Below, piece by piece: positions 1,705 to 13,337 of a stretch of DNA of 13,337 nucleotides; within the stretch, counting starts at the first letter, position 1; each line of letters opens with the position of its first letter. The stretch covers positions 1 to 13,337 of the forward strand of contig JAFSVK010000072.1 in the NCBI GenBank assembly GCA_017444985.1, read 5' to 3'. The DNA comes from Bacillota bacterium (GTDB lineage Bacteria > Bacillota > Clostridia > Lachnospirales > CAG-274). The position numbers were made by a program, and so were the translations under genes. The notes beneath the pieces are model-generated. The model was not told the DNA's origin and did not search any database. It was given only the letters and a program-made list of their open reading frames with translations.

Positions 1705-2403
1705 TTATTTTTCGGCTTTACACCGTCTGTTTCTCTCATCCACAAGTATGTCAAGGTTGGTTATTTTTGCGGATATACCTTCGTAGTTGTTGCTTGTTAT
1801 CATTTGCTTCAGCTCTTCCATACCCGTTGTTATACGCTGTTCAACATCCTCAAGGGCGGGAGATGAAACGGGATCGCTGTATTTTATTTTTTCCGAAAGT
1901 TTTTCAAGCTGTTTTTTTGCTTCCTTGTCTGTGCAGGAGGCAACGAGGCTGTCGGCATTAAGTCTGAATACTTTATTCTGCTGTATCTTCTGTTTGTTTT
2001 TAATATCTACACTCTCTACCATGTCTCTTGCATTATCCGTTGCAACAGTACCTATCAATACAGCCGCAAGCAGGAGAACACCCACCGTAACGGATATCCA
2101 AAGGGGAGTGATAACAGCTTTGTTCAATATAAATATAAAAAGTGAAAATACAAGCTGTGTTACGGTATAAATACAGCTTATCCTCAATATGGGAAAGCCA
2201 TATATTTTTGAGATCAAGCCACCTCTTTTGTTAAAGGCATAGTTTGTTATAAAACACCCTAATACTATGGAAACTTCGGCAAATGCAAAGGCTACCCATA
2301 CAGCGGGGGTTCTTGTGAAAGGTATTACGAAAAATAACACTGTAAATACCGCAAGTACGATACCGTAAACCGAAAATATGGAGTTTTTCTGCTTGGCTGA
2401 CAT
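1705..2403 (-). CDS. Membrane protein (4 predicted TM helices plus C-terminal coiled-coil/charged region), translationally coupled to the upstream SPFH gene
   Basis: Its ATG overlaps the stop of the upstream gene (ATGA at 2400-2405). Hydrophobic stretches in the first ~125 aa. No recognisable catalytic motif. Confidence 0.65.
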   Translation of the reverse strand: MSAKQKNSIFSVYGIVLAVFTVLFFVIPFTRTPAVWVAFAFAEVSIVLGCFITNYAFNKRGGLISKIYGFPILRISCIYTVTQLVFSLFIFILNKAVITPLWISVTVGVLLLAAVLIGTVATDNARDMVESVDIKNKQKIQQNKVFRLNADSLVASCTDKEAKKQLEKLSEKIKYSDPVSSPALEDVEQRITTGMEELKQMITSNNYEGISAKITNLDILVDERNRRCKAEK

Positions 2404-3941
2404 TATTCATCACCTCGTTTTTCTCCGCAATCGGGGCAGAAATTACTTGTTATGTCTTTTGCACCGCAGGGACAGTTCCAAGTACTTGGCTTTTCGGGTT
2501 TTTTAGCACCGCATTCGGGACAAAACTTGCTTGTGATATTTTTTTTGCCACACACCGAACAATCCCAAGAGTCTTCTTTTTCGGGCTTTTTAGCTCCGCA
2601 ATCGGGACAGAAATTACTTGTGATATTTTTTGTGCCGCACCGGTTACAATCCCAAGAGCCTTCTTTTTTAGGCTCCGTTTTTTTAGCACCGCAGTTGGGG
2701 CAGAAATTGGTGGTTATACCGTTTGTGCCACATTCGGGACATATCCAACCTTCGGGGATGTTACCCGCAACGATACTTCCAAACCCCGTACCTACCTGCG
2801 AAGTGTTCTCCATAATAGGATTGAGGGCTTCCCGTGTCATACCTATAACACCGCCCATTGCACCCAAAGTTACTCCGAGGCCTGCAATATCTCCGAGACC
2901 TCCGCCGCTGCCGCCTCCCGTTATGCCGTTTTGCATAGCTTCAAGCCCAACTTGTCTGGCGGTCTCCTGTTGATATGTATAGCCTTTCATTTTCATTTCT
3001 TCGGCTTCCGCTTGTGCTTGCATTTTGTAAGCTTCCGCCTCTGCCTGTGCCTTTATTTTAGTTGCCTCCGCTTCACCCTGTGCACCTACCATTTTCAGCT
3101 GTGCGGCGGTTTGCGCTTCAAGTATCTTTCTTCCCTGTGCCGCTTCCGCTTCGGCACGTCTTACCTCTTCTTCACGAACCTTTAAGGTCTTATCGGCAAA
3201 CTGTTGTTTAAGCCTCTTAAAATTAGGGTCATCGTCGGGGGTCATAACACTTGTAATGTAAAACTCGGGCATTACAAGACCGTAATCATCAAGGGTCTCG
3301 TTTATGACTTCCCGCATATTTTCCGAAAGTACGTCAAGATATGAGTCTATTTCAAGTATATTTATATTTTGCTCTTTTATAACTCTTGCAAGGTTTGACT
3401 TCACTCTGTTCATAACAAGAGCCTTGAATTTGCCTACCTTGTAGGAAACACCCTCACCAAGCAACTCTCCCTGTGTAAAGGAATCGGTAGTACCTACAAG
3501 TTTAAGTACCAACTTGCGAGAATCATTCACCCGCATATTAAAATTGCCGCAGGCACCTATTTCTATATGCAACCCCGAGGCGGGATCAAACAGGCGTACC
3601 TTGCTGTCGGTACCCCATTTTATACCCATTTGAGTGGTAAGGTTTATAAAATATACCTCGGAATGGAAAACACTTTCACCCCCCGTAGGTATTTTATATA
3701 GCTCACTTAAAATGGGGATATTTTGGGTCTCAAGGCTGTATCTGCCCGAGCCGAACAAGTCAAGGGCACGACCGTCATTGAAAAACAGTGCTTCTTGTGA
3801 TTCGTGTACAATAAGCTGAGAGCCCATATTGAAATCTTCAACGGGGTGCTTCCACACAAATACATCATTGCCGCCTTCATATTTTATAACGTTTATAATT
3901 TCTTTGCCGTTTTGTTTATCCTTTTTATCAAAAAATGCCAT
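2403..3941 (-). CDS. SPFH/band-7 domain protein of the YdjI type (COG4260) fused to four C-terminal tandem zinc-ribbon repeats
   Basis: The N-terminal 330 aa resemble B. subtilis YdjI (MxFF..., FxNxGR, VxFxN, WGT). An Ala/Glu/Gln-rich coiled coil and a Gly-rich linker follow. Then come four repeats of W-x-C-x2-C-G-x-x-x-I-T-[ST]-x-F-C-P-x-C-G-[AE]-K-[KR]. GAGGTGA RBS 5 nt upstream of the ATG. Confidence 0.85.
   Translation of the reverse strand: MAFFDKKDKQNGKEIINVIKYEGGNDVFVWKHPVEDFNMGSQLIVHESQEALFFNDGRALDLFGSGRYSLETQNIPILSELYKIPTGGESVFHSEVYFINLTTQMGIKWGTDSKVRLFDPASGLHIEIGACGNFNMRVNDSRKLVLKLVGTTDSFTQGELLGEGVSYKVGKFKALVMNRVKSNLARVIKEQNINILEIDSYLDVLSENMREVINETLDDYGLVMPEFYITSVMTPDDDPNFKRLKQQFADKTLKVREEEVRRAEAEAAQGRKILEAQTAAQLKMVGAQGEAEATKIKAQAEAEAYKMQAQAEAEEMKMKGYTYQQETARQVGLEAMQNGITGGGSGGGLGDIAGLGVTLGAMGGVIGMTREALNPIMENTSQVGTGFGSIVAGNIPEGWICPECGTNGITTNFCPNCGAKKTEPKKEGSWDCNRCGTKNITSNFCPDCGAKKPEKEDSWDCSVCGKKNITSKFCPECGAKKPEKPSTWNCPCGAKDITSNFCPDCGEKRGDE
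2406..2756. repeat. Four tandem ~78-87 bp coding repeats (zinc-ribbon modules) at the 3' end of the SPFH gene
   Basis: The units recur in the DNA (tttgtcccgaatgcggtgctaaaaaacc...). The protein shows four C-x2-C...F-C-P-x-C-G units. Confidence 0.7.
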
Positions 3942-4021: not shown

Positions 4022-4061
4022 TATAATTTATATCCGTAATATTGCAAAATAATATATTATA

Positions 4062-4218
4062 GGGTACCTCTAAAAAGTGCTATTGAAGTAAAATTGAGAT
4101 AGCTTGTTCGAGGACCGGGAAGTGGCTCGAAGCCAATGTAGAGCATTGGTGAGAGACATTGACGACTAACATGTGCAAGATAGTCAATTTTACGATTTAT
4201 GACTTTTTAGAGGTGCCC
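4062..4218 (+). repeat. Family-A structured repeat, copy 1 (157 bp, 17-bp terminal inverted repeats, MITE-like)
   Basis: GGGTACCTCTAAAAAGT...ACTTTTTAGAGGTGCCC. Near-identical to the copies at 7422, 11288 and 13206. Confidence 0.85.
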
Positions 4219-4267
4219 ATTATTTTATAATAAAAAATATAAAGATCACAATGGGAATTTAGTATAC

Positions 4268-4298
4268 AAAAAAACGCCGAGACTCTCGGCGTTTTTTT
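4268..4298. terminator. Bidirectional rho-independent terminator
   Basis: aaaaaaa-cgccgag-act-ctcggcg-ttttttt is a 7-bp GC-rich stem with a 3-nt loop, flanked by an A7 run and a T7 run. It lies immediately downstream of the stop at 4302 of the minus-strand gene. Confidence 0.7.
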
Positions 4299-4301
4299 CT
4301 G

Positions 4302-4934
4302 TCACTTTATTTTTGCACTACTTGGAATGCGGCTTAGTATATACTCTTTTACATAGTCAAAGTACTCTGTAGCTACATATACTTGATTGTGGCTTAGGGG
4401 TGCATTAAGGTAAATGGTATTTCTTGTACTTGATATTTTAACGCTTTTGACTTTTGAAAATTCTGTACTTATACTGTTTCTGACAGCATTTGAAATACCC
4501 GGCCCCGTCATAGATAAATTTCCTGAAACGGCACCTACAACGGCAGTAAACCAACCCATAGTCTTTGCTTTGTCAAATTGTTGACTCATTTGTCGGTGAA
4601 CTATGCCTTCTTCATCCATCTCAAATATTACCATATACTTCCACCCGTACTGTTTTGCAACCATAAAATAGGCTACTACACCAAGCACACAGAAAAACAT
4701 GGTAAGCATAACAAAAAGCTCTGTAAGAGAAATATAAGGTTTAAGTTCCTTGTTGTTTTCGACTACAAGAAGAAAAATTACAAAAAGCCAAACTATAAAG
4801 GCAGATATACATATTACCTTCCAGATAGTAAAAAGTATGGTGGAATTTTTCAGCATATCAAAATGATACGCCCAGCGATATTTTCCGTCACTGCAAAGGG
4901 TGGGGCTTTGGGCTGTAAACTCTTCTTTATTCAT
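4302..4934 (-). CDS. Hypothetical membrane protein (two TM helices, C-terminal soluble domain)
   Basis: The ORF track gives 230 aa. The likely true start is MNKEEF at 4934, 9 nt after a GGAAAGGAG RBS. Hydrophobic segments at FIVWLFVIFLLVV and VMLTMFFCVLGVVAYFMV. No recognisable family. Confidence 0.6.
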   Translation of the reverse strand: MNKEEFTAQSPTLCSDGKYRWAYHFDMLKNSTILFTIWKVICISAFIVWLFVIFLLVVENNKELKPYISLTELFVMLTMFFCVLGVVAYFMVAKQYGWKYMVIFEMDEEGIVHRQMSQQFDKAKTMGWFTAVVGAVSGNLSMTGPGISNAVRNSISTEFSKVKSVKISSTRNTIYLNAPLSHNQVYVATEYFDYVKEYILSRIPSSAKIK

Positions 4935-5067
4935 AATACACACTCCTTTCCTATTTTTTCCATACATTATACTAAAAAAATCATACATTATCAATGTATA
5001 TAAATTTTTTATTGTGATATGTTGGTAAATATTTTAAATAGAACTTTAAATTTTGATATAAATTATG

Positions 5068-5096
5068 TTGAAATATATTTATAAGTGTAGTATAAT
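5068..5096 (+). promoter_or_regulatory. Near-consensus sigma-A promoter (TTGAAA -17- TATAAT) for the GGDEF gene
   Basis: ttgaaa at 5068-5073, a 17-nt spacer, and tataat at 5091-5096. This leaves a ~95-nt 5' UTR before the ATG at 5195. Confidence 0.5.
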
Positions 5097-5194
5097 AAAA
5101 CGGATAGCTGATACCACTTTTGTGATACGGGACTTGTAGTCGCATTTTAAATAAAATCTGCACCGTAATATAACATAACTCGGGAGGAAAATAT

Positions 5195-6595
5195 ATGGAT
5201 CTTCAAAGTATAGTCGACCAATTTAATATAATATCTGCCGTATATTCCTTTGATATTCTGCCTGACGGAAGTCGCGGAGAAATAAGGCTTGAAGCTGCCA
5301 ATGCCGCAGACAGAGCTTATTTTGCCACATTTTATCCTTCGGTAAAATATTATCCCGGGATACCTATTCGCAAGTTTTTTACGGAATATAACTTGGAGGA
5401 TTTTATATACAGAGCAGCTACATCGGGAGATCCCCTTTACAGCTATGTAAATGCACAAAACAGTTGGATGAAAAGCTTCTTTCTGCCCTTTAAAACAGAT
5501 GAAGACAGGCCCTCATCCGAAGTGAAAACATATTACTGTCTGTATTTTTTGACAATAGACTCAAACTTAAATGCGGGAGATATGTCACAGCGATCTTTTG
5601 AGGTTTCATCGTCGGTATTGCAACTTAGTGTAAAGCTTCACCGCACAGAGGATTTTCGGGAAGCTATGGTTTCTTCCGTAGCGGAGATCAAGAATATTTG
5701 CAGATCGGAAGATTGTGCCATATATACCGTAGATCAACATAAAAGGGAATGTCGCTTGTTTAGTTTTGACGGTGAGCACGAAGAGTTTATAGAAAGCTTT
5801 GCTCAAGAAATGTCACGTACACCCTATGAGGTAGCTATGGCATGGGAAAAGGATCTTGACGGAAGCGATGGCTTGATACTTGATGATCTGAAGGTGGTTG
5901 AAGAAATAGATCCTGTATGGTACAGGTCTATGTGCAATTACGGTATTAAAAATATAATACTTTTTTCCATAAGATTTCATAATAATTTGGTGGGCTTTAT
6001 ATGGGCGGCAAATTATGACAACTCATATTCCTTGGAAATAAAGGAAACTCTTGAATTGGCATCCTTCCTTCTTGCGGCGGTAATAGCCAACCATCAGATA
6101 GTAAGTCATTTAAAAATAATGAGTACCATAGATGCACTTACTCAGGTACACAACAGAAATTCCATGAATGACAGAGTTGATAAGTTGGTATCGGGCAAGG
6201 AAAAGTTGCCCGAAAATATGGGTGTCGTATTTGCGGACATCAACGGCCTTAAGAGTGTTAACGATAATTTTGGCCATAGCGAAGGAGATAAGCTTATAAA
6301 AAAGGCAGCGGCACTTTTGAATATAGCCTTTTTAAGTTATGAAATATACAGAGCAGGCGGAGATGAGTTTGTGGTATTTTGTCCGAATGTCACAAAAGAG
6401 GAATTTGAAGGCTGTTTGGAACAACTTAAAAAACTTACCGATAACACCACGGATATAAGTATAGCTGTAGGTGCAAAGCATTTTTCGGGAAATTACGATG
6501 TGTTGCAAGCAATGCAGACGGTGGATAAGCTAATGTATATAAACAAAGAAGAGTACTATAAAAATCATCCTGAAATGGAGAGAAGAAGAACATGA
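5195..6595 (+). CDS. GGDEF-domain diguanylate cyclase with an uncharacterised ~300-aa N-terminal sensor region
   Basis: The C-terminal ~160 aa carry the GGDEF-domain signatures (..ADINGLKSVNDNFGHSEGDKLIK.., YRAGGDEFVVF). No RxxD I-site was seen immediately upstream of GGDEF. GGGAGG RBS upstream. Confidence 0.85.
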   Translation: MDLQSIVDQFNIISAVYSFDILPDGSRGEIRLEAANAADRAYFATFYPSVKYYPGIPIRKFFTEYNLEDFIYRAATSGDPLYSYVNAQNSWMKSFFLPFKTDEDRPSSEVKTYYCLYFLTIDSNLNAGDMSQRSFEVSSSVLQLSVKLHRTEDFREAMVSSVAEIKNICRSEDCAIYTVDQHKRECRLFSFDGEHEEFIESFAQEMSRTPYEVAMAWEKDLDGSDGLILDDLKVVEEIDPVWYRSMCNYGIKNIILFSIRFHNNLVGFIWAANYDNSYSLEIKETLELASFLLAAVIANHQIVSHLKIMSTIDALTQVHNRNSMNDRVDKLVSGKEKLPENMGVVFADINGLKSVNDNFGHSEGDKLIKKAAALLNIAFLSYEIYRAGGDEFVVFCPNVTKEEFEGCLEQLKKLTDNTTDISIAVGAKHFSGNYDVLQAMQTVDKLMYINKEEYYKNHPEMERRRT

Positions 6596-6670
6596 GATAA
6601 TAAGGGCAATGTCATCAACTTAAGGGTACTCTAAAACTAATATTAGGTTAGATTTTAACAAAAGGCATTA

Positions 6671-6775
6671 TACAACTTGTAGGGAACGACCAATGCACCG
6701 CAAAGATAGATGCGGGCAGGCGAAAGCCTGACTTTTGCGTAGCAAAAGTGCTGATGCGTGTAGTTCCGTCTGCAA
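6671..6775 (+). repeat. Family-B structured element, copy 1 (candidate small ncRNA or cis-RNA), in the 3' region of the GGDEF gene
   Basis: acaacttGTAGGGAACGACC...GTTCC core with internal GAAA-tetraloop hairpin. Near-identical to 13036-13135, and the 5' 20 nt are shared with 7660-7680. Confidence 0.6.
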
Positions 6776-6824
6776 ATTATGGAAAATTAGTAGTATTGAA
6801 ACAAATTGATAACATTGATGATAA

Positions 6825-6862
6825 TGGGGTGTGAAAATATGCATTCACACCCCATTTTGTTT
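6825..6862 (+). terminator. Rho-independent terminator (11-bp stem tggggtgtgaa/ttcacacccca, then TTTTGTTT)
   Basis: A perfect 11-bp inverted repeat with an 8-nt loop, followed by a T-rich tract. It lies downstream of the GGDEF gene and of B copy 1. Confidence 0.6.
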
Positions 6863-6871
6863 GGATCGTTT

Positions 6872-7363
6872 TTAAGCCCAAGGATCGTCTTTTTGCGGTA
6901 CACGTATGTCAGATAAATAGAATATCTCCCATACATACCATTTATCGCCTTTTCTTCGCAGGCTTAAGTATCTGTCGCTGTCGGCTCCCGAAGAGTGCAT
7001 ATATATTTTGGCATAGCCTTCGTTGTCGTATGAGTAGGGATTATCGAATACCGTTATGGTATAGGGCTGTGTGGGGGTATAGTTGTTTTCGGGGCTTGAA
7101 CCTTCAAAAAATGAAAATGTTTTATAGCCTTTTCCCGAAAGTCTGTCACGCAAAAATTGTGTTTCATACACAGACAGGGGTTGAGGACCTTTTAAAAAGT
7201 TCAACATTTCTATGGTTTTTTCTTTGTCTTTTTCATAGTTACAAAGCACAAGTACCGAAAGTGCCGCAGTAGCAAAAGGCGAGGTAAGTTCCGCCTCCTT
7301 AAGAGCTTGAAGTTGTTCTGTGTTTTCGGGTATAGCCGTGAATTTAAAAGTTTCGCTTTTCAT
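6872..7363 (-). CDS. Hypothetical protein (163 aa, no TM helices, no recognisable motif)
   Basis: Clean ORF with an AGGAGG RBS 7 nt upstream of the ATG at 7363. Confidence 0.65.
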   Translation of the reverse strand: MKSETFKFTAIPENTEQLQALKEAELTSPFATAALSVLVLCNYEKDKEKTIEMLNFLKGPQPLSVYETQFLRDRLSGKGYKTFSFFEGSSPENNYTPTQPYTITVFDNPYSYDNEGYAKIYMHSSGADSDRYLSLRRKGDKWYVWEIFYLSDIRVPQKDDPWA

Positions 7364-7421
7364 AAATACCTCCTCTTGATTTGTTTTCTTTTATTTTAAC
7401 ACCTTTAGAGTATTTAGTAAA

Positions 7422-7578
7422 GGGGACCTCTAAAAAGTGCTATTGAAGTAAAATTGAGATATCTTGTTCGAGGACTAGGAAATGGCTCGAAGCCAATGTA
7501 GAGCATTGGTGAGAGACATTGACGACGTAATCGGATAAGATAGCCAATTTTACGATTTATGAGTTTTTAGAGGTTCCC
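7422..7578 (+). repeat. Family-A structured repeat, copy 2
   Basis: GGGGACCTCTAAAAAGT...GAGTTTTTAGAGGTTCCC. Same architecture as copy 1, with a different 10-nt variable box (gtaatcggat). Confidence 0.85.
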
Positions 7579-7659
7579 TAAATATAAAATGCTAATTCTT
7601 TGCATATATATAACCATTAAAGGCATAAAAATAACTACGACAATATTTCAAAAACTTAT

Positions 7660-7717
7660 AACAATCGGTAGGGAACGACCCGCGTGTCGTTCCGGTGGGA
7701 ACAGCTGTTATTTTTTT
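7660..7717 (+). other. Internally deleted family-B hairpin (ggaacgac-ccgcgt-gtcgttcc) with an alternative gttcc/ggaac pairing, followed by a T7 run. Terminator-like or attenuator-like element upstream of the xyl operon
   Basis: It shares acaa.tcgtagggaacgacc with the full B copies but lacks the ~66-nt internal segment. This leaves a perfect 8-bp hairpin. T7 at 7711-7717. Confidence 0.35.
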
Positions 7718-7805
7718 GTAAAATATTATGGCTTATATGGAAATTTGGCGAAAAATAAGGGAAAGGTATTTTTGCTTTTTGAATATTGTTTATAAGAAAA
7801 TTCTT

Positions 7806-7834
7806 ATTGTATTTACTGCGATGTTGTGATAAAA
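7806..7834 (+). promoter_or_regulatory. Candidate promoter for the cupin-xylA-xylB operon (TTGTAT -17- TAAAAT with TG at -15/-14), overlapped by the inverted repeat ATAAGAA-aa-TTCTTAT (7791-7806)
   Basis: Hexamers at 7806-7811 and 7829-7834. The palindrome lies directly upstream of and overlaps the -35 hexamer, and could be an operator. Confidence 0.3.
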
Positions 7835-7897
7835 TATATAGTATAAAAACCTATTTGTAGGGGTTTGTATTCGAAGTATAAGTCTAAGGAGAAGGCT

Positions 7898-8233
7898 ATG
7901 AAGTATTATTCTGACAGTAACAAACTTATAGAGAAAATGGAAAAAGAGGGTGTAAATGCCTGCGATGTTCTTACGGAAGAAAACGGCTGTGTTGCGGGAT
8001 GCAAGGCAGGGTTTACATTTTACAGAACAACAGAGTACAAAAAGCCGGGTGTACATAAAGATCAAGAAGGCTTTTTGGTGCTTGAAGGACGGGGAAGGGC
8101 AAAATTCGGGAAAGAAGAGTTTGATATTTACCCGGGCCTTACAATGATAGCACCCCCGGGAGTTACCCACACCATAAAAAAGAACGAGGACAGCTGTGAT
8201 GTAAAAGTGTTTTGGTTTCACAGTGCAGTGTAA
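7898..8233 (+). CDS. Cupin-domain protein (111 aa)
   Basis: The start was taken at MKYYSDS, 7 nt after an AGGAGAAGG RBS. The G(x)5HxH...PxG...H-like conserved-barrel motif pattern (GFLVLEGRG...PPGVTHTI) is typical of cupin_2. Confidence 0.65.
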   Translation: MKYYSDSNKLIEKMEKEGVNACDVLTEENGCVAGCKAGFTFYRTTEYKKPGVHKDQEGFLVLEGRGRAKFGKEEFDIYPGLTMIAPPGVTHTIKKNEDSCDVKVFWFHSAV

Positions 8234-8246
8234 AAGGAGGAGAGCG

Positions 8247-8474
8247 ATGCCCTATATAGCGATAAAATCCTACCCTAAGGATGAAGAGATCAAAAAAAGA
8301 GTAATAGAAGGAATAAATAAGGTACTTCTTGAGGAAATGGGATGTTCTCAAGAAGCAATATGTATATCTATGGAAGAAGTAAAGCCCGAAGAGTGGGTTG
8401 AAAAGGTGAGGACACCCGAAATAGAGCCTAATAAAGACAAAATGAAAATACTTTACGGAAAGAAAATGTATTAA
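8247..8474 (+). CDS. 4-oxalocrotonate tautomerase-family protein (75 aa, Pro1)
   Basis: [10 protein letters not shown]... begins 7 nt after an AAAGGAGGAG RBS. The size, the N-terminal Pro and the beta-alpha-beta pattern fit the 4-OT family. Confidence 0.65.
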
Positions 8475-8488
8475 AGAGAGGTAAAGAT

Positions 8489-9805
8489 ATGAAAGAATAT
8501 TTTCCAATGGTAAAAAAGGTGGTTTACAAAGGCAAGGATTCAAAGGATCCCTTTGCATTTAAATATTACGATGCGGAAAGGATAGTAGGCGGTAAGCCTA
8601 TGAAGGAGCAACTTAAATTTGCCATGAGCTGGTGGCATACACTGTGTGCTGCGGGAGCGGATCCCTTTGGAGCGCCTACTATGGACAGAAGTTACGGTGG
8701 CTTGACAGACCCTATGGAAATTGCAAAGGCAAAGGTTGATGCAGGCTTTGAGTTTATGTCAAAGCTCGGTATAGAGTATTTTTGCTTTCACGATGCGGAT
8801 ATAGCGCCTGCCGGGGAAACTTTTGCCCAAACAAAAGAAAACTTTTGGAAGATAGTTGAATACATAGAGACCAAAATGAAGGAAAGCGGTATAAAGCTTT
8901 TATGGGGTACGGCAAATTGCTTTAACGAGCCGAGATATATGCACGGAGCGGGAACATCCTGTAATGCTCATAGCTTTGCCTATGCGGCGGCACAGATCAA
9001 AAATGCCATAGAAGCCACCGTAAAACTTGGAGGTAAGGGCTATGTGTTCTGGGGCGGAAGAGAGGGCTACGAGACCCTTTTGAATACGGATATGGCTCTT
9101 GAAACGGACAATATGGCAAGACTTATGCGTATGGCGGTGGATTTCGGCAGAAGCATAGGCTTTGAAGGAGATTTTTACATAGAGCCAAAGCCTAAGGAAC
9201 CCACAAAACATCAGTACGATTTTGATGCCGCAACTGTTTTGGGCTTTTTAAGAAAATACGGTCTTGAAAAAGATTTCAAACTTAATATAGAGGCAAATCA
9301 TGCCACCTTGGCAGGCCATACCTTTGAACATGAGTTGAGGGTAGCAAGAACAAACGGCGCTTTCGGAAGTATAGATGCCAACAGCGGAGACCCTAATTTA
9401 GGTTGGGATACGGATCAATTCCCTACGGATGTATACTCGGCTACACTTTGTATGCTTGAAGTTATAAAGGCGGGAGGCTTTACAAACGGCGGACTTAATT
9501 TTGATGCTAAGGTACGCAGAGGTTCCTTTACCTTTGAGGACTTGGTTTATGCATATATAAGCGGTATGGATACCTTTGCCTTAGGTCTTATAAAGGCTTA
9601 TGAAGTGATCGAGGACGGCAGGATAGATGATTTTGTAAAACAGAGATACATAAGCTACAGCAAGGGTATAGGTAAAGACATTGTAGAGGGTAGGGCAAGC
9701 CTTGAAAGTCTTGAAAAGTATATACTTGAAAATGACAAGGTAACTATGGAAAGCGGAAGGCAAGAGTACCTTGAGACCATATTGAATAACATACTCTTCG
9801 GGTGA
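8489..9805 (+). CDS. xylA: Xylose isomerase (class II)
   Basis: 438 aa. The N-terminus [24 protein letters not shown] and the motifs FHD.D, WGGREG and the catalytic His/Asp/Glu spacing match the Firmicutes/Thermoanaerobacter XylA pattern. Confidence 0.95.
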
Positions 9806-9809
9806 TATT

Positions 9810-11312
9810 ATGAGATATATTATAGGCTGTGATATAGGTACTTCGGGAACGAAGACGGTTTTATACAATGAAAACCTTGAACCTCTTTTTCAAGCCCTCG
9901 GGGAATACACCCTTCACCAGCCACAAAACGGTTGGGCTGAGCAAAACCCCAAGGATTGGTATGATGCGGTCATAAGCACTGTAAAAAAAGTTGTGGAAGA
10001 AGCTAAGGTAGATAGCAGTGATATAAAGGCTATAGGTCTTTCGGGACAAATGCACGGCCTTGTCATGTTGGATGAAAACAACAATGTTTTAAGACCTGCC
10101 ATAATATGGTGCGATCAGCGAACGGGAAAAGAGTGTGTGGAAATAACACAAAAAATAGGCGCAAGTCGACTTGTGGAAATAACGGCAAATCCCGCTCTTA
10201 CAGGCTTTACCGCATCTAAGATAATGTGGGTCAAAAACAATGAGCCCCATATTTACCGCAAGTGCAAACATATACTTCTTCCAAAGGATTATATACGATT
10301 TATGCTTACGGGAGAGTATGCTACGGATGTGTCGGATGCAAGCGGTATGCAGCTTTTGGATGTTCCAAAAAGATGTTGGTCGAAGGAAGTATTAAATAAG
10401 CTTGATATAGATGAGAGTCTACTTGGTTCGGTGTATGAGTCCTGTGAAATAACGGGATATATTACCGAAAAAACAGCCTCCCTCACAGGTCTTTCCACAA
10501 ACACCGCCGTAGTGGGGGGAGCGGGAGACAATGCGGCGGCAGCTATAGGAACGGGCATTGTAAAAGAAGGCAGAGCCTTTACCACCATAGGCACCTCGGG
10601 AGTGGTATATGCTCACACCGATAAGCCTGTTATAGATCCAAAGGGCAGAGTCCACACCTTTTGCTGTGGGGTAAAGGGTAAGTGGCATGTTATGGGAGTT
10701 ACCCAGGCTGCGGGTTCTTCTTTAAAATGGTTTAAAAATACCTTTGGAGATACCGACTACTCTCTTATAAACCATATGGTTAAAAATTCACCTATAGGTG
10801 CTGACAGGCTTATATATCTACCCTATCTTATGGGTGAGAGGACACCTCATCTTGATGAGGATTGCAGAGGTGTTCTTTTCGGCTTATCCGCAAGCCACAG
10901 CCGTGGGAACATATATCGCAGCGTAATGGAGGGAGTAGCCTTTTCTCTTACGGATTGCAAGGATATACTTGAAGAAATGGCTATAGAAGCAAAGGATATG
11001 ACAGCTTGCGGCGGAGGCAGTGAAAGCGATATTTGGATGCAAATATTGGCGGATTGCTACAACTGTGATATAAAAAGACTAAGTAGCGCACAGGGTCCCG
11101 CCTTAGGTGTTGCAATATTGGCAGGTGTAGGTGTCGGGATATTTCCCGATGTGGTCTCCGCCTGCGATAAATTTATAAAGCCTGCAAGTATCACTAAAAG
11201 CCAAAAAGAAAATGCAGAAAAGTACAAGAAGATACATAATTTATACAAAAAACTCTATTTGGATCTAAAAGAGGATTTTAAATTATTGGGGAGCTCTAAA
11301 AAGTGCTATTGA
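9810..11312 (+). CDS. xylB: Xylulokinase (FGGY carbohydrate kinase)
   Basis: 500 aa. N-terminal GCDIGTSGTK (FGGY phosphate-1 loop), an internal GGGA...N motif and the C-terminal FGGY domain. The last ~8 codons and the stop lie inside family-A copy 3. Confidence 0.9.
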   Translation: MRYIIGCDIGTSGTKTVLYNENLEPLFQALGEYTLHQPQNGWAEQNPKDWYDAVISTVKKVVEEAKVDSSDIKAIGLSGQMHGLVMLDENNNVLRPAIIWCDQRTGKECVEITQKIGASRLVEITANPALTGFTASKIMWVKNNEPHIYRKCKHILLPKDYIRFMLTGEYATDVSDASGMQLLDVPKRCWSKEVLNKLDIDESLLGSVYESCEITGYITEKTASLTGLSTNTAVVGGAGDNAAAAIGTGIVKEGRAFTTIGTSGVVYAHTDKPVIDPKGRVHTFCCGVKGKWHVMGVTQAAGSSLKWFKNTFGDTDYSLINHMVKNSPIGADRLIYLPYLMGERTPHLDEDCRGVLFGLSASHSRGNIYRSVMEGVAFSLTDCKDILEEMAIEAKDMTACGGGSESDIWMQILADCYNCDIKRLSSAQGPALGVAILAGVGVGIFPDVVSACDKFIKPASITKSQKENAEKYKKIHNLYKKLYLDLKEDFKLLGSSKKCY

Positions 11313-11444
11313 AGTAAAATTGAGATATTTTGTTCGAGGACCGGGAAATGGCTCGAAGCCAATGTAGAGCATTGGTGAGAGACATTGAGGACTAACATGT
11401 GCAAGATAGCCAATTTTACGATTTATGACTTTTTAGAGGTTCCC
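11288..11444 (+). repeat. Family-A structured repeat, copy 3 (overlaps the 3' end of xylB)
   Basis: GGGGAGCTCTAAAAAGT...GACTTTTTAGAGGTTCCC. Its variable box is identical to copy 1 (taacatgtgc). The A-rich left TIR is read as ..GSSKKCY* in the xylB frame. Confidence 0.85.
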
Positions 11445-11475
11445 TATTGTCCAATATTTAAAAGGAGTGAATATT

Positions 11476-12915
11476 ATGAAAAGAAAAGTAATGAATTTTG
11501 CCGCACTTGTGTTAATGGGTGCAACACTTATGTCTGTAGGTGCTTATGCCGAGGGTATCGGTATAGTTATAGACGGAAAAAATATTGAGACCGATGTAGC
11601 ACCTATTATAACACCCGAGGGTAGGACTATCGTTCCCTTAAGAGTGATATCCGAAAACTTAGGTGCAAATGTGGAGTGGGACGGTACCACAAAAACAGTT
11701 ACGGCAGAGAAAGAGGGAGATGTTATAAGCCTTGTTATAGGAGAAGAATATCTTGACTTTAACGGCAAGACATTAGAACTTGACTCTCCCGCGCAAATAG
11801 TCAATGAAAGGACTATGGTGCCTATAAGAATAATATCCGAGTGCTTTGGCTGTAATGTAGATTGGGAGGCTGAAACAAAGACAGTCGTGATCTCTTCCGC
11901 CGAAGAGAAGAAGGAGACCAAACTCCCTAAATATACCGCAAACGAGGACAAATACATTGCAGCCGCTGAGAGTAAAATACTTGAATATTCCGAATATTAC
12001 TCTCCCGCCGACCTTTCTCAACCCGTAGTCACTATTGTAAAGGTAGATGACAGCGATCCCGATGATATTAAGTGTTACGGTAGTTTTTGGATACTTAATT
12101 ATGATCTTAAAGGCAAATTGCTTGAATTTGTAAGCGGTGGCTCCTATCCCGGCTGTATGCACATGAAAAAGGGTGCTGATGGAAGTATTGAAGTGACAAG
12201 CTTTGATATAGTAGAGGACGGCGAGAACGGACAAGAGTCTCTTGAAAAGATATGTGGCGGAGATAAAGAACTTGCCGCACAGGTAACTAAAGCATTGGAG
12301 TTAAATGAGGATGTAAGAAAAGAAGGCTTAAAAGCTTACGTTAAAGCCAACAAACTTGATATAGAAGGCTACAAGGATTACGGGTATGATGCCGTATACT
12401 TTGATACCGAAGGACCTACGGAAGCTACGGAGGACCTCATAGGCGAAGAGGTACCAAATGAATTTATATTTTCCAGCGGTGCGGGAGGTTGGCGCACGGT
12501 TTTAAGGCTTAACAAAGACGGCTCTTTTACAGGCAACTATTCCGATTCCGAAATGGGAAGTACGGGAGAGGGCTACCCCAAAGGCTCTGTCTATGTGTGT
12601 GATTTTTCGGGTAAGTTTACGGACATAAAAAAAGATGGACAAAACTACACCATGAAGTTGGAAAGCCTTGAATCGGAGAAAAAAGAGGGTGAAGAGTGGA
12701 TAGAAGATGAGATCAAATACATCTATTCCACACCCTACGGCATAGAGGGCGGTAAGAATTTCGTCATCTACGCCCCCGACACTCCCCTCGAAGGCTTCTC
12801 GGAAACATTCCTAAGCTGGTGGCCCGGAAGATACAGCGAAAACAAAGACCAAAAAACATTGGGCTTTTACAGTATTTGTAATGTGGAAACAGAAGAAGGA
12901 TTCTTTGCGGATTGA
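11476..12915 (+). CDS. Secreted protein: signal peptide, two copper-amine-oxidase N-terminal-like 'stalk' repeats, and an uncharacterised ~330-aa C-terminal domain
   Basis: Start taken at MKRKVMNF, 8 nt after an AAAGGAG RBS. The signal peptide ends with AYA-EG. Two ~55-aa repeats (...TIVPLRVISENLGANVEWD.. / ..TMVPIRIISECFGCNVDWE..) are characteristic of the Cu_amine_oxidN1 stalk domain common in clostridial cell-surface proteins. Confidence 0.75.
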   Translation: MKRKVMNFAALVLMGATLMSVGAYAEGIGIVIDGKNIETDVAPIITPEGRTIVPLRVISENLGANVEWDGTTKTVTAEKEGDVISLVIGEEYLDFNGKTLELDSPAQIVNERTMVPIRIISECFGCNVDWEAETKTVVISSAEEKKETKLPKYTANEDKYIAAAESKILEYSEYYSPADLSQPVVTIVKVDDSDPDDIKCYGSFWILNYDLKGKLLEFVSGGSYPGCMHMKKGADGSIEVTSFDIVEDGENGQESLEKICGGDKELAAQVTKALELNEDVRKEGLKAYVKANKLDIEGYKDYGYDAVYFDTEGPTEATEDLIGEEVPNEFIFSSGAGGWRTVLRLNKDGSFTGNYSDSEMGSTGEGYPKGSVYVCDFSGKFTDIKKDGQNYTMKLESLESEKKEGEEWIEDEIKYIYSTPYGIEGGKNFVIYAPDTPLEGFSETFLSWWPGRYSENKDQKTLGFYSICNVETEEGFFAD

Positions 12916-12952
12916 GAAGTAATATAAAAATTCTTCGTATTTATAAAAAATG

Positions 12953-12990
12953 AAAAAACCTCTCGCAGAGCTAACTGTGAGAGGTTTTTT
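12953..12990 (+). terminator. Rho-independent terminator (bidirectional: A6, 10-bp stem with one G-U pair, T6)
   Basis: aaaaaa-cctctcgcag-agctaa-ctgtgagagg-tttttt, immediately downstream of the stop at 12915. Confidence 0.75.
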
Positions 12991-13035
12991 CATAATAATC
13001 CAATAGAAAACTTTATATTTAACATAGAATATAGC

Positions 13036-13135
13036 ACAACTCGTAGGGAACGACCATTGCACCGCAAAGATAGATGCGGGCAGGCGATAGCCTGACTTTT
13101 GCGTAGCAAAAGTGCTGATGCGTGTTGTTCCGATG
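13036..13135 (+). repeat. Family-B structured element, copy 2
   Basis: acaactcGTAGGGAACGACC...GTTGTTCC. It differs from copy 1 at ~6 positions, including a compensatory A->T in the 3' half of the closing stem. Confidence 0.6.
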
Positions 13136-13205
13136 GGAGTAGACACTAATTTTTGACTCAAAAATATAAAGATTACTATTGATCTTTAGTATTATACTTT
13201 TTTAT

Positions 13206-13337
13206 GGGTACCTCTAAAAAGTGCTATTGAAGTAAAATTGAGATAGCTTGTTCGAGGACTAGGAAATGGCTCGAAGCCAATGTAGAGCATTGGTGAGAGA
13301 CATTGACGACGGACTCGGGCAAGATAGCCAATTTTAC
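13206..13337 (+). repeat. Family-A structured repeat, copy 4 (truncated by the window end)
   Basis: GGGTACCTCTAAAAAGTGCTATTGAAGTAAAATTGAGATAGCTTG... is identical to copy 1 over the left half and has its own variable box (ggactcgggc). Confidence 0.8.

Follow-up and report, generated by a model that had tools for sequence, protein, structure and literature searches.

A 157-bp inverted-repeat element, probably a new family of MITE, at high local density in an uncultured Clostridia genome

The repeat and the genes around it

The stretch of DNA considered here, referred to as the window, covers the 13,337 nucleotides at positions 1 to 13,337 of contig JAFSVK010000072.1, from assembly GCA_017444985.1 of an uncultured Bacillota bacterium that is placed by GTDB within the Clostridia (Lachnospirales; CAG-274). 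The window encompasses a cupin-tautomerase-xylA-xylB operon and, among other genes, those for a Band_7/zinc-ribbon protein, a DUF6935 protein and a Cu_amine_oxidN1 protein. It also harbors four copies of a 157-bp repeat unit, every one of them on the + strand, and it is this repeat, probably a MITE (miniature inverted-repeat transposable element), that forms the subject of the present analysis. The copies were placed by repeat detection, by a four-way alignment, and by a BLAST search in which copy 1 was compared with the window and with related contigs, and the matches have E values of 1e-53 to 1e-79, which is far past chance. The first-pass annotation, which was made from the letters alone, had described four copies in the same orientation that are more than 90% identical. 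That description stands, with an identity to copy 1 of 89.8% for copy 2, 94.9% for copy 3, and 93-94% for copy 4.

The four copies are found in quite different settings. Copy 1 (4062-4218, +, 157 bp) has on one side the terminator of a 210-aa gene and on the other the promoter region belonging to the 512-aa Band_7/zinc-ribbon gene. The two genes are on the minus strand, and the 4-mers that border the copy form an imperfect pair (positions 4058-4061 and 4219-4222). Copy 2 (7422-7578, +, 157 bp) is bordered by the perfect duplication TAAA (7418-7421 and 7579-7582), and occupies the divergent region between the DUF6935 gene on the minus strand and the cupin-tautomerase-xylA-xylB operon on the + strand. 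Copy 3 (11288-11444, +, 157 bp) is bordered by a perfect duplication of TATT (11284-11287 and 11445-11448), and ends 31 nt upstream of the start of the Cu_amine_oxidN1 gene at 11476. Copy 4 (13206-13337, +) is cut by the end of the window, is complete at positions 11731-11887 of contig L006, and has a duplication of TTAT, the left half of which lies at 13202-13205. The element itself is non-coding, as all six frames are broken by stops and the longest stop-to-stop interval, of about 49 codons, is without a usable start.

Metagenome contigs of the same organism in ENA and Logan also encode proteins of the window, and when merged (L001 reversed, followed by the window and L006) they extend to 32.7 kb. 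Six copies are found within 22 kb of this sequence, namely the four of the window and two to its left (L001 15261-15417 and L001 19498-19654). A further search made use of a six-frame pseudo-protein of the element and was aimed at spurious open reading frames called on copies; its single match (P0001, in which TGA is read as Trp) falls on an 855-nt contig and corresponds to copy 7, at an unrelated site (L013 659-815). In total, seven copies are found at seven different sites. The element has been inserted repeatedly into one uncultured Clostridia genome, with six copies in 22 kb and at least one elsewhere. The unit is therefore not confined to the one locus, a possibility that the first-pass annotation had wished to see examined by BLASTN; the searches recover the extra copies, but no full-length parent insertion sequence (IS) with the same terminal repeats.

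Contigs from several samples (L004, L005, L011 and L012) stop inside the element because a multi-copy repeat breaks short-read assembly, which is the expected behavior. An exact 24-mer from the central hairpin has no match in metagenome or viral contigs, and none among the genome-contig matches listed. Plasmid and phage records give nothing relevant when searched by BLAST with the element, and in 1.3 Mb of loci anchored on xylB, taken from 80 other species of gut and rumen (Clostridia, Treponema and Megamonas), neither nhmmer nor a covariance model detects a copy.

Terminal repeats, flanking duplications and interrupted genes

The element begins with a left terminal inverted repeat, GGG(T/G)A(C/G)CTCTAAAAAGT, which is found on the + strand at 4062-4078 and again at 7422-7438, 11288-11304 and 13206-13222. 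It ends with the right terminal inverted repeat, A(C/G)TTTTTAGAGGT(G/T)CCC, on the + strand at 4202-4218 and again at 7562-7578 and 11428-11444. The left repeat occupies the same positions in every copy, and the same motif ends a set of relatives from JGI metagenomes that are described below; it would be the site at which a transposase binds and cleaves. A lack of conservation of these ends, which the first-pass annotation had named as a weakness to look for, is not observed, and the terminal repeats are kept in all seven copies found. They are 17 bp in length, and in each copy 15-17 of the 17 positions pair when G.T at position 4 is counted, with 14-16 of them as Watson-Crick pairs. The termini had been reported as perfect reverse complements, and they are not: all seven copies have a wobble, G.T or T.G, at position 4/154, and none has a Watson-Crick pair there, and G.G mismatches are found at 6/152 in three copies and at 16/142 in three copies.

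The flanks provide the decisive evidence on the nature of the element. A perfect 4-bp duplication borders six of the seven copies (TAAA, TATT, TTAT, AATA, ATAA and ATAA), and all of the target-site duplications of the window family are composed of A and T only.

The copy at L001 19498-19654 sits between two gene fragments, both of which match ABC_tran, where the DNA reads ...AGAGATAA, then the element, then ATAATATAAAAG.... Removal in silico of the element together with one ATAA produces a continuous frame of 236 codons in the ABC-ATPase gene, and the restored frame has the Walker A (GSSGSGKST) and Walker B motifs as well as the LSGGQQQ signature. When compared with intact 232-aa homologues, with which it shares 69-86% identity, the restored frame is gapless at the junction (LSVRDNI/KVAEKLS). 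An intact allele of the split gene was also sought, and the best match, 84-86% identical, comes from other organisms and supplies no empty site. The loci around the homologues contain no copies of the element, and a DDE_Tnp_1 gene in one of them (L156) has unrelated ends. The split gene (L001 19103-19854, minus strand) is without an ATG start, as its frame opens with ATT where the homologues have MI, and it has a 5-residue insertion near the N-terminus with respect to the intact homologues; it looks like a decaying pseudogene. An ABC-ATPase adjacent to the window shares 74% identity with a protein of Pseudobutyrivibrio and 69-72% with one of Oribacterium.

Copy 3 is found within the last codons of xylB. 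With the element in place the tail of the protein reads ...DFKLLGSSKKCY before the stop, of which copy 3 supplies the end ...GSSKKCY, and without the element the tail reads ...DFKLLSNI before the stop. The right-hand duplication of copy 4 holds the stop codon of a convergent, minus-strand gene of 107 aa. With these two cases the original statement that all copies are intergenic does not survive. When the short contig of copy 7 is left out, six mapped copies remain, of which five are either outside genes or at the extreme end of one.

The lowest-energy fold of the element is a single unbranched rod of 52-58 pairs, capped by the hairpin CCAATG...CATTGG. The interior had been thought to be something other than a simple foldback, and a foldback is essentially what it is. 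The energy of the + strand fold ranges from -54 to -71 kcal/mol across the seven copies, and copies tested against shuffled controls, with energies of -63 and -68 kcal/mol, give z-scores of -8.3 and -10.5. The rod is a consequence of the long imperfect palindrome, and it perhaps aids the persistence of the element. A co-transcribed copy would be predicted to form a very stable RNA hairpin, and no evidence was seen that the hairpin is its purpose.

A hypervariable patch of 10 nt (4167-4176 on the + strand, columns 106-115 of the element) exists in five variants among seven copies that are otherwise about 95% identical. In copies 2, 4 and 7 the patch is fully paired with columns 45-52, which are invariant, and in copies 1, 3, 5 and 6 it is not fully paired; the pair 51/109 is G-C in copy 4 and A-U in copy 7. 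Template switching in quasi-palindromes produces clustered changes of this kind, by which a palindrome is perfected, and may account for the patch, which points to a process at the level of DNA. The seven copies are too alike, and hold too little variation, for covariation to be tested on them.

Relatives elsewhere and other repeats at the locus

Relatives were sought with a pattern made up of only the two terminal-repeat cores, set 105-135 nt apart. The pattern matched 57 JGI metagenome contigs and gave 50 unique full elements, mostly of 142 bp (loci L094-L150), the ends of which read GGGCACCTCTAAAAAGT...ACTTTTTAGAGGTGCCC. The terminal repeat GGGNACCTCTAAAAAGT ends both the window family and the JGI family, with 16 of the 17 positions identical. 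Perfect 4-bp duplications are found at 37 of the 50 JGI copies. The duplicated 4-mer is A/T-rich, though the loci average 53% GC (with a range of 43-61%); its first position is T or A in 37/37 and its fourth is A or T in 34/37, and the commonest base is C just before the duplication and G just after it. The JGI elements are short, non-coding and mostly intergenic, and are sometimes present several to a contig. With respect to the genes on their two sides they are sense/sense in 9 cases, antisense/antisense in 15, between divergent genes in 8 and between convergent genes in 6.

The JGI elements also form a rod, in which 97% of cells are paired and 16 of 43 pairs have changed on both sides. In two copies the core of the terminal repeat has itself changed on both sides, from AAAAAGT/ACTTTTT to ATTTATT/AATAAAT. 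The asymmetry between the strands is small, with a mean of -1.7 kcal/mol, and 35 copies favor one strand and 15 the other. A hammerhead or small-ribozyme reading of the JGI core was judged by eye, is unsupported by Rfam, and was dropped. A covariance model built from 43 JGI copies matches all of the window-family copies over their full length and on the + strand, at 19-31 bits and E values of 1e-6 to 2e-3. A profile of the JGI interior, run with nhmmer at maximum sensitivity against the window-family interiors, gives no match at E values of up to 100. The two groups share their ends, the length of the duplication and the shape of the rod, and are not demonstrably the same family; they probably share a related transposase.

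A third type of element, A/T-rich and 131-145 nt in length, is seen in L125, L129, L133 and L136 (SDBV01 contigs), with the ends GAGTCCACTCTAAAAAGT...ACTTTTTAGAGGTGACTC. It shares only the terminal-repeat core CTCTAAAAAGT, and it has no obvious 4-bp duplication.

The central 60 nt of the JGI element is 85-89% identical by BLAST to intergenic sequence that is present in all 5,426 complete Escherichia coli genomes, at 1-3 places per genome with the JGI query and at 1-8 (median 5) with the E. coli query. The E. coli element is rod-shaped and about 142 nt in length (L151 1459-1600, in the qseG-glrK intergenic region, and L152 5523-5664, in K-12 MG1655), and is without annotation in RefSeq. The JGI model scores it at 73 bits over its full length, and its termini differ. 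The 1997 annotation of K-12 lists a repeat called 'RSA', with 6 copies of 150/151 bp (PMC5172473 Table 1). The E. coli repeat is probably this one, an identification made from size and copy number only. BoxC was also considered as its identity and is out, being a 56-bp triplex motif. Finally, the Xanthomonas small RNA sX9 (RF02228) gives a match below threshold on the minus strand of L117 (6379-6424) and L151 (1473-1539), at about 31.5 bits against a gathering score of 44, which suggests an origin of sX9 from a repeat element of a related kind. The window element has no detectable similarity to either the E. coli repeat or sX9. As seen from the E. coli repeat and sX9, elements of this architecture are old and widespread.

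The remaining features of the locus can be described briefly. To the right of the window, a 9.5-kb segment with genes for MobC, a relaxase and a WCX-domain protein contains no copy, and looks like a mobilizable island. The closest XylB in species-representative genomes, a set that does not include the host, is 75% identical and belongs to an uncultured Clostridia metagenome-assembled genome (MAG); the next matches, at 72%, are from Bacillota MAGs of sheep rumen and roe-deer gut. Judged by these matches and those of the ABC-ATPase, the host would be an uncultured Clostridia bacterium of gut or rumen, possibly close to Lachnospiraceae. A second repeat family, 'B', of about 97 nt, is present on the + strand at 6672-6768 and 13036-13132 in full copies that are 96% identical. 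In its fold, three hairpins (CCGCA...TGCGG, AGGC-GA(A/T)A-GCCT and CTTTTGC-GTA-GCAAAAG) are enclosed by a helix formed from GGGAACGAC and GT(A/T)GTTCC. One full copy follows the GGDEF gene and the other the Cu_amine_oxidN1 gene, in each case immediately downstream of the gene and with the gene on the + strand, and a partial site at 7661-7702 keeps the closing helix alone, as a simple hairpin. Family 'B' has no match in Rfam. The minus-strand gene at 2403-3941 contains, at 2418-2748 of the window, four tandem coding repeats of 84-93 nt, which encode zinc-ribbon units of the CPxCG type at the C-terminus of the 512-aa Band_7/SPFH-domain protein.

Nature of the element and comparison with known systems

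Prokaryotic MITEs are defined as elements of <500 bp that have terminal repeats of 4-30 bp and flanking direct repeats, and they are associated with A/T-rich intergenic targets and with transcripts that form stable stem-loops (PMC10969869 section 2.1). The element of the window is small and non-coding, has terminal repeats and duplications, is present in multiple dispersed copies, and combines A/T-rich, mostly intergenic targets with a stable fold. Because of its terminal repeats, its duplications of fixed length and variable sequence, its small size and lack of coding capacity, its dispersed copies and its A/T-rich targets, we consider it very likely to be a MITE, that is, a non-autonomous DNA transposon, and to represent a new family of a well-known kind. 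The first-pass annotation had offered a new MITE and a new structured intergenic RNA as alternatives. The former is supported by the duplications, the in-silico restoration of a gene, the copies outside the window, and the relatives with the same terminal repeats. The latter finds no support, as the orientation toward genes is mixed, copies occur in reading frames, and no promoter or terminator signal is prominent. No named family covers the sequence in Rfam or in plasmid and phage records, and a search of the text of papers with the sequence of the terminal repeat returned nothing relevant.

The element would be mobilized in trans by a transposase that is encoded elsewhere, most likely of the DDE type, and that recognizes the 17-bp terminal inverted repeats. 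Insertion would take place at A/T-rich sites through a 4-bp staggered cut, and repair of the cut would leave the 4-bp direct duplication. A duplication of this length, together with ends that start with GG, is presumably compatible with DDE transposases of the IS5 group or the IS701 type, which is a lead and not a result.

A number of observations weigh against a MITE. No autonomous parent with these terminal repeats is found in the fetched loci, the viral contigs or the plasmid records: the long-range pairs of terminal repeats in all loci are formed by adjacent MITE copies only, an 18-mer of the terminal repeat is absent from viral contigs, and the left end gave nothing meaningful against plasmids. 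Copy 1 is without a perfect duplication (TATA / ATTA). It had been proposed that target-site duplications be sought through empty sites in related strains, and this was borne out in part, since perfect duplications flank six of the seven copies but no empty site is found in a sister strain. Every recovered contig has the same insertions, and for this reason the element is not shown to have moved recently. The six linked copies all point in one direction and the flanking genes do not; when the linked copies of the window family are taken together with the relatives' contigs, 10/12 neighboring pairs are co-oriented, which may reflect an insertion bias linked to replication. The GC skew follows gene orientation and is uninformative for the assignment of leading and lagging strands. 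The + strand is more stable than the - strand by 15-24 kcal/mol in 7/7 copies, because 5-6 of its pairs are G.U. Lastly, the JGI elements have a covariation score of 0.184, against ≤0.043 for controls with slid partners. A simple cut-and-paste model for double-stranded DNA would predict none of these three features, namely the common orientation of the linked copies, the strand asymmetry and the compensatory change in the rod of the relatives.

The fold of the + strand and the covariation could both be explained by a unit that is primarily a structured or cis-regulatory RNA, made from the + strand and happening to be repeated, in which the terminal repeats serve as the closing helix. The alternation of U.G and G.U at position 4/154, where a Watson-Crick pair never occurs, the change in the pair 51/109 in copies 4 and 7, the double changes in the pairs of the JGI relatives and the sub-threshold resemblance of the JGI core to sX9 are all in keeping with such an RNA, which we nevertheless hold to be quite unlikely. 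Duplications and insertions inside reading frames are properties of mobile DNA and not of an RNA gene. With respect to genes, three of the window-family copies are sense, one is antisense, and two lie between divergent or convergent genes, and the orientation of the JGI copies is likewise mixed. Promoter-like sites are no more frequent than in shuffled sequence, with none prominent in the element, which also contains no terminator-like site, and Rfam (release 15) returns nothing at gathering thresholds and no match overlapping a copy at E values of up to 5. The strand asymmetry in the seven copies is effectively a single observation, inherited from one master copy, the copies themselves are too uniform for covariation to be assessed, and compensatory change in a palindrome can also come from template switching during replication. 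A dedicated RNA role is thus not supported, and an RNA role or a single-stranded intermediate has a low probability. The same asymmetry, together with the uniform orientation of the six linked copies and of most adjacent pairs and with a hairpin that is kept by compensatory change in the JGI relatives, would also be accounted for if the element moved as a single-stranded hairpin by means of an HUH-type enzyme, in the manner of REP/RAYT or of elements derived from IS200/IS605. Palindromic elements of these kinds insert beside a fixed short motif and, to our knowledge, have neither a target-site duplication nor true terminal inverted repeats. In the window family there are true terminal repeats, the flanking 4-mers are duplicated and differ between sites, and excision in silico requires the removal of exactly one 4-mer, and movement of this sort appears highly improbable.

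A broader proposal is that the window element belongs, with the JGI elements and, by way of the core that they have in common with these, the E. coli repeat and sX9, to a cross-phylum set of mobile rod-shaped hairpins in which the fold is selected on one strand. We regard this as rather unlikely. If it were true, the single-stranded fold would be a transposition intermediate or a functional RNA carried as cargo, and one would have to see signs of function, not by-products of a palindrome, in the asymmetry of the strands, in the uniform local orientation and in the compensatory changes. The copies might also be imagined as the recombination sites of an integron-like or shufflon-like system, with the genes between them as exchangeable cassettes, given that they are imperfect palindromes in the same orientation, 1.9-3.9 kb apart, with genes between. 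This is almost certainly not the case. The surrounding 32.7 kb contains no integrase or recombinase gene, and the would-be cassettes consist of one to four genes in mixed orientation, with an ordinary xylose operon among them. The copies each have a 4-bp duplication of their own, different from the others, one of them is within a gene, and the order of the blocks is identical in every contig recovered from different samples. Bracketing of cassettes in the integron fashion was rejected, being contradicted by the duplications. It is in this light that two further statements of the first-pass annotation can be viewed. That the copies bracket every gene block is a fair description of where they lie, but the blocks do not resemble cassettes, as the first of them holds three genes in mixed orientation. 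That direct repeats drive the deletion or duplication of blocks is speculation, as all metagenome contigs recovered for the locus have the same arrangement.

Taken as a MITE, the element represents a new family, locally very dense, with ends that are common to an uncharacterized and widespread group of elements. It leaves the existing picture of how MITEs work unchanged. It fragments short-read assemblies of the organism, has split an ABC-ATPase gene, and has altered the C-terminal end encoded by xylB. With a local density of about one copy per 3.7 kb, it could have a major part in shaping the intergenic regions of this uncultured lineage of gut or rumen Clostridia. A near-identical 17-bp terminal repeat and a 4-bp duplication are found on elements with unrelated interiors in very different bacteria. 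The shared ends point to a widely distributed transposase lineage, for which the terminal repeat provides a direct handle.

Among known systems, the classical MITEs are Correia of Neisseria, RUP of Streptococcus pneumoniae, ERIC/IRU of enterobacteria and bcr1 of the Bacillus cereus group. They are of similar size, at about 100-160 bp, are likewise bounded by terminal inverted repeats, occur in many intergenic copies with occasional insertions into genes, and form a long hairpin when they are transcribed. The terminal sequence of the window element appears to differ from theirs. Correia and RUP have a TA duplication and the site reported for bcr1 is of 5 bp, whereas the window element has a duplication of 4 bp. 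The JGI family of about 142 bp is alike in its terminal repeat, its 4-bp A/T-rich duplications, its short non-coding sequence and its unbranched rod, but it differs in its interior, in its length of 142 rather than 157 bp, in its GC-richer loci and in its clearly different hosts. The E. coli repeat and sX9 have the central 60 nt and the rod shape in common with the JGI relatives; the termini of the E. coli repeat differ, and its similarity does not reach the window element. The attC sites of integrons are also imperfect palindromes that lie between genes in one orientation, and they are set apart from the present element by its lack of an integrase, its per-copy duplications, its one intragenic copy, and the multi-gene blocks of mixed orientation that lie between its copies.

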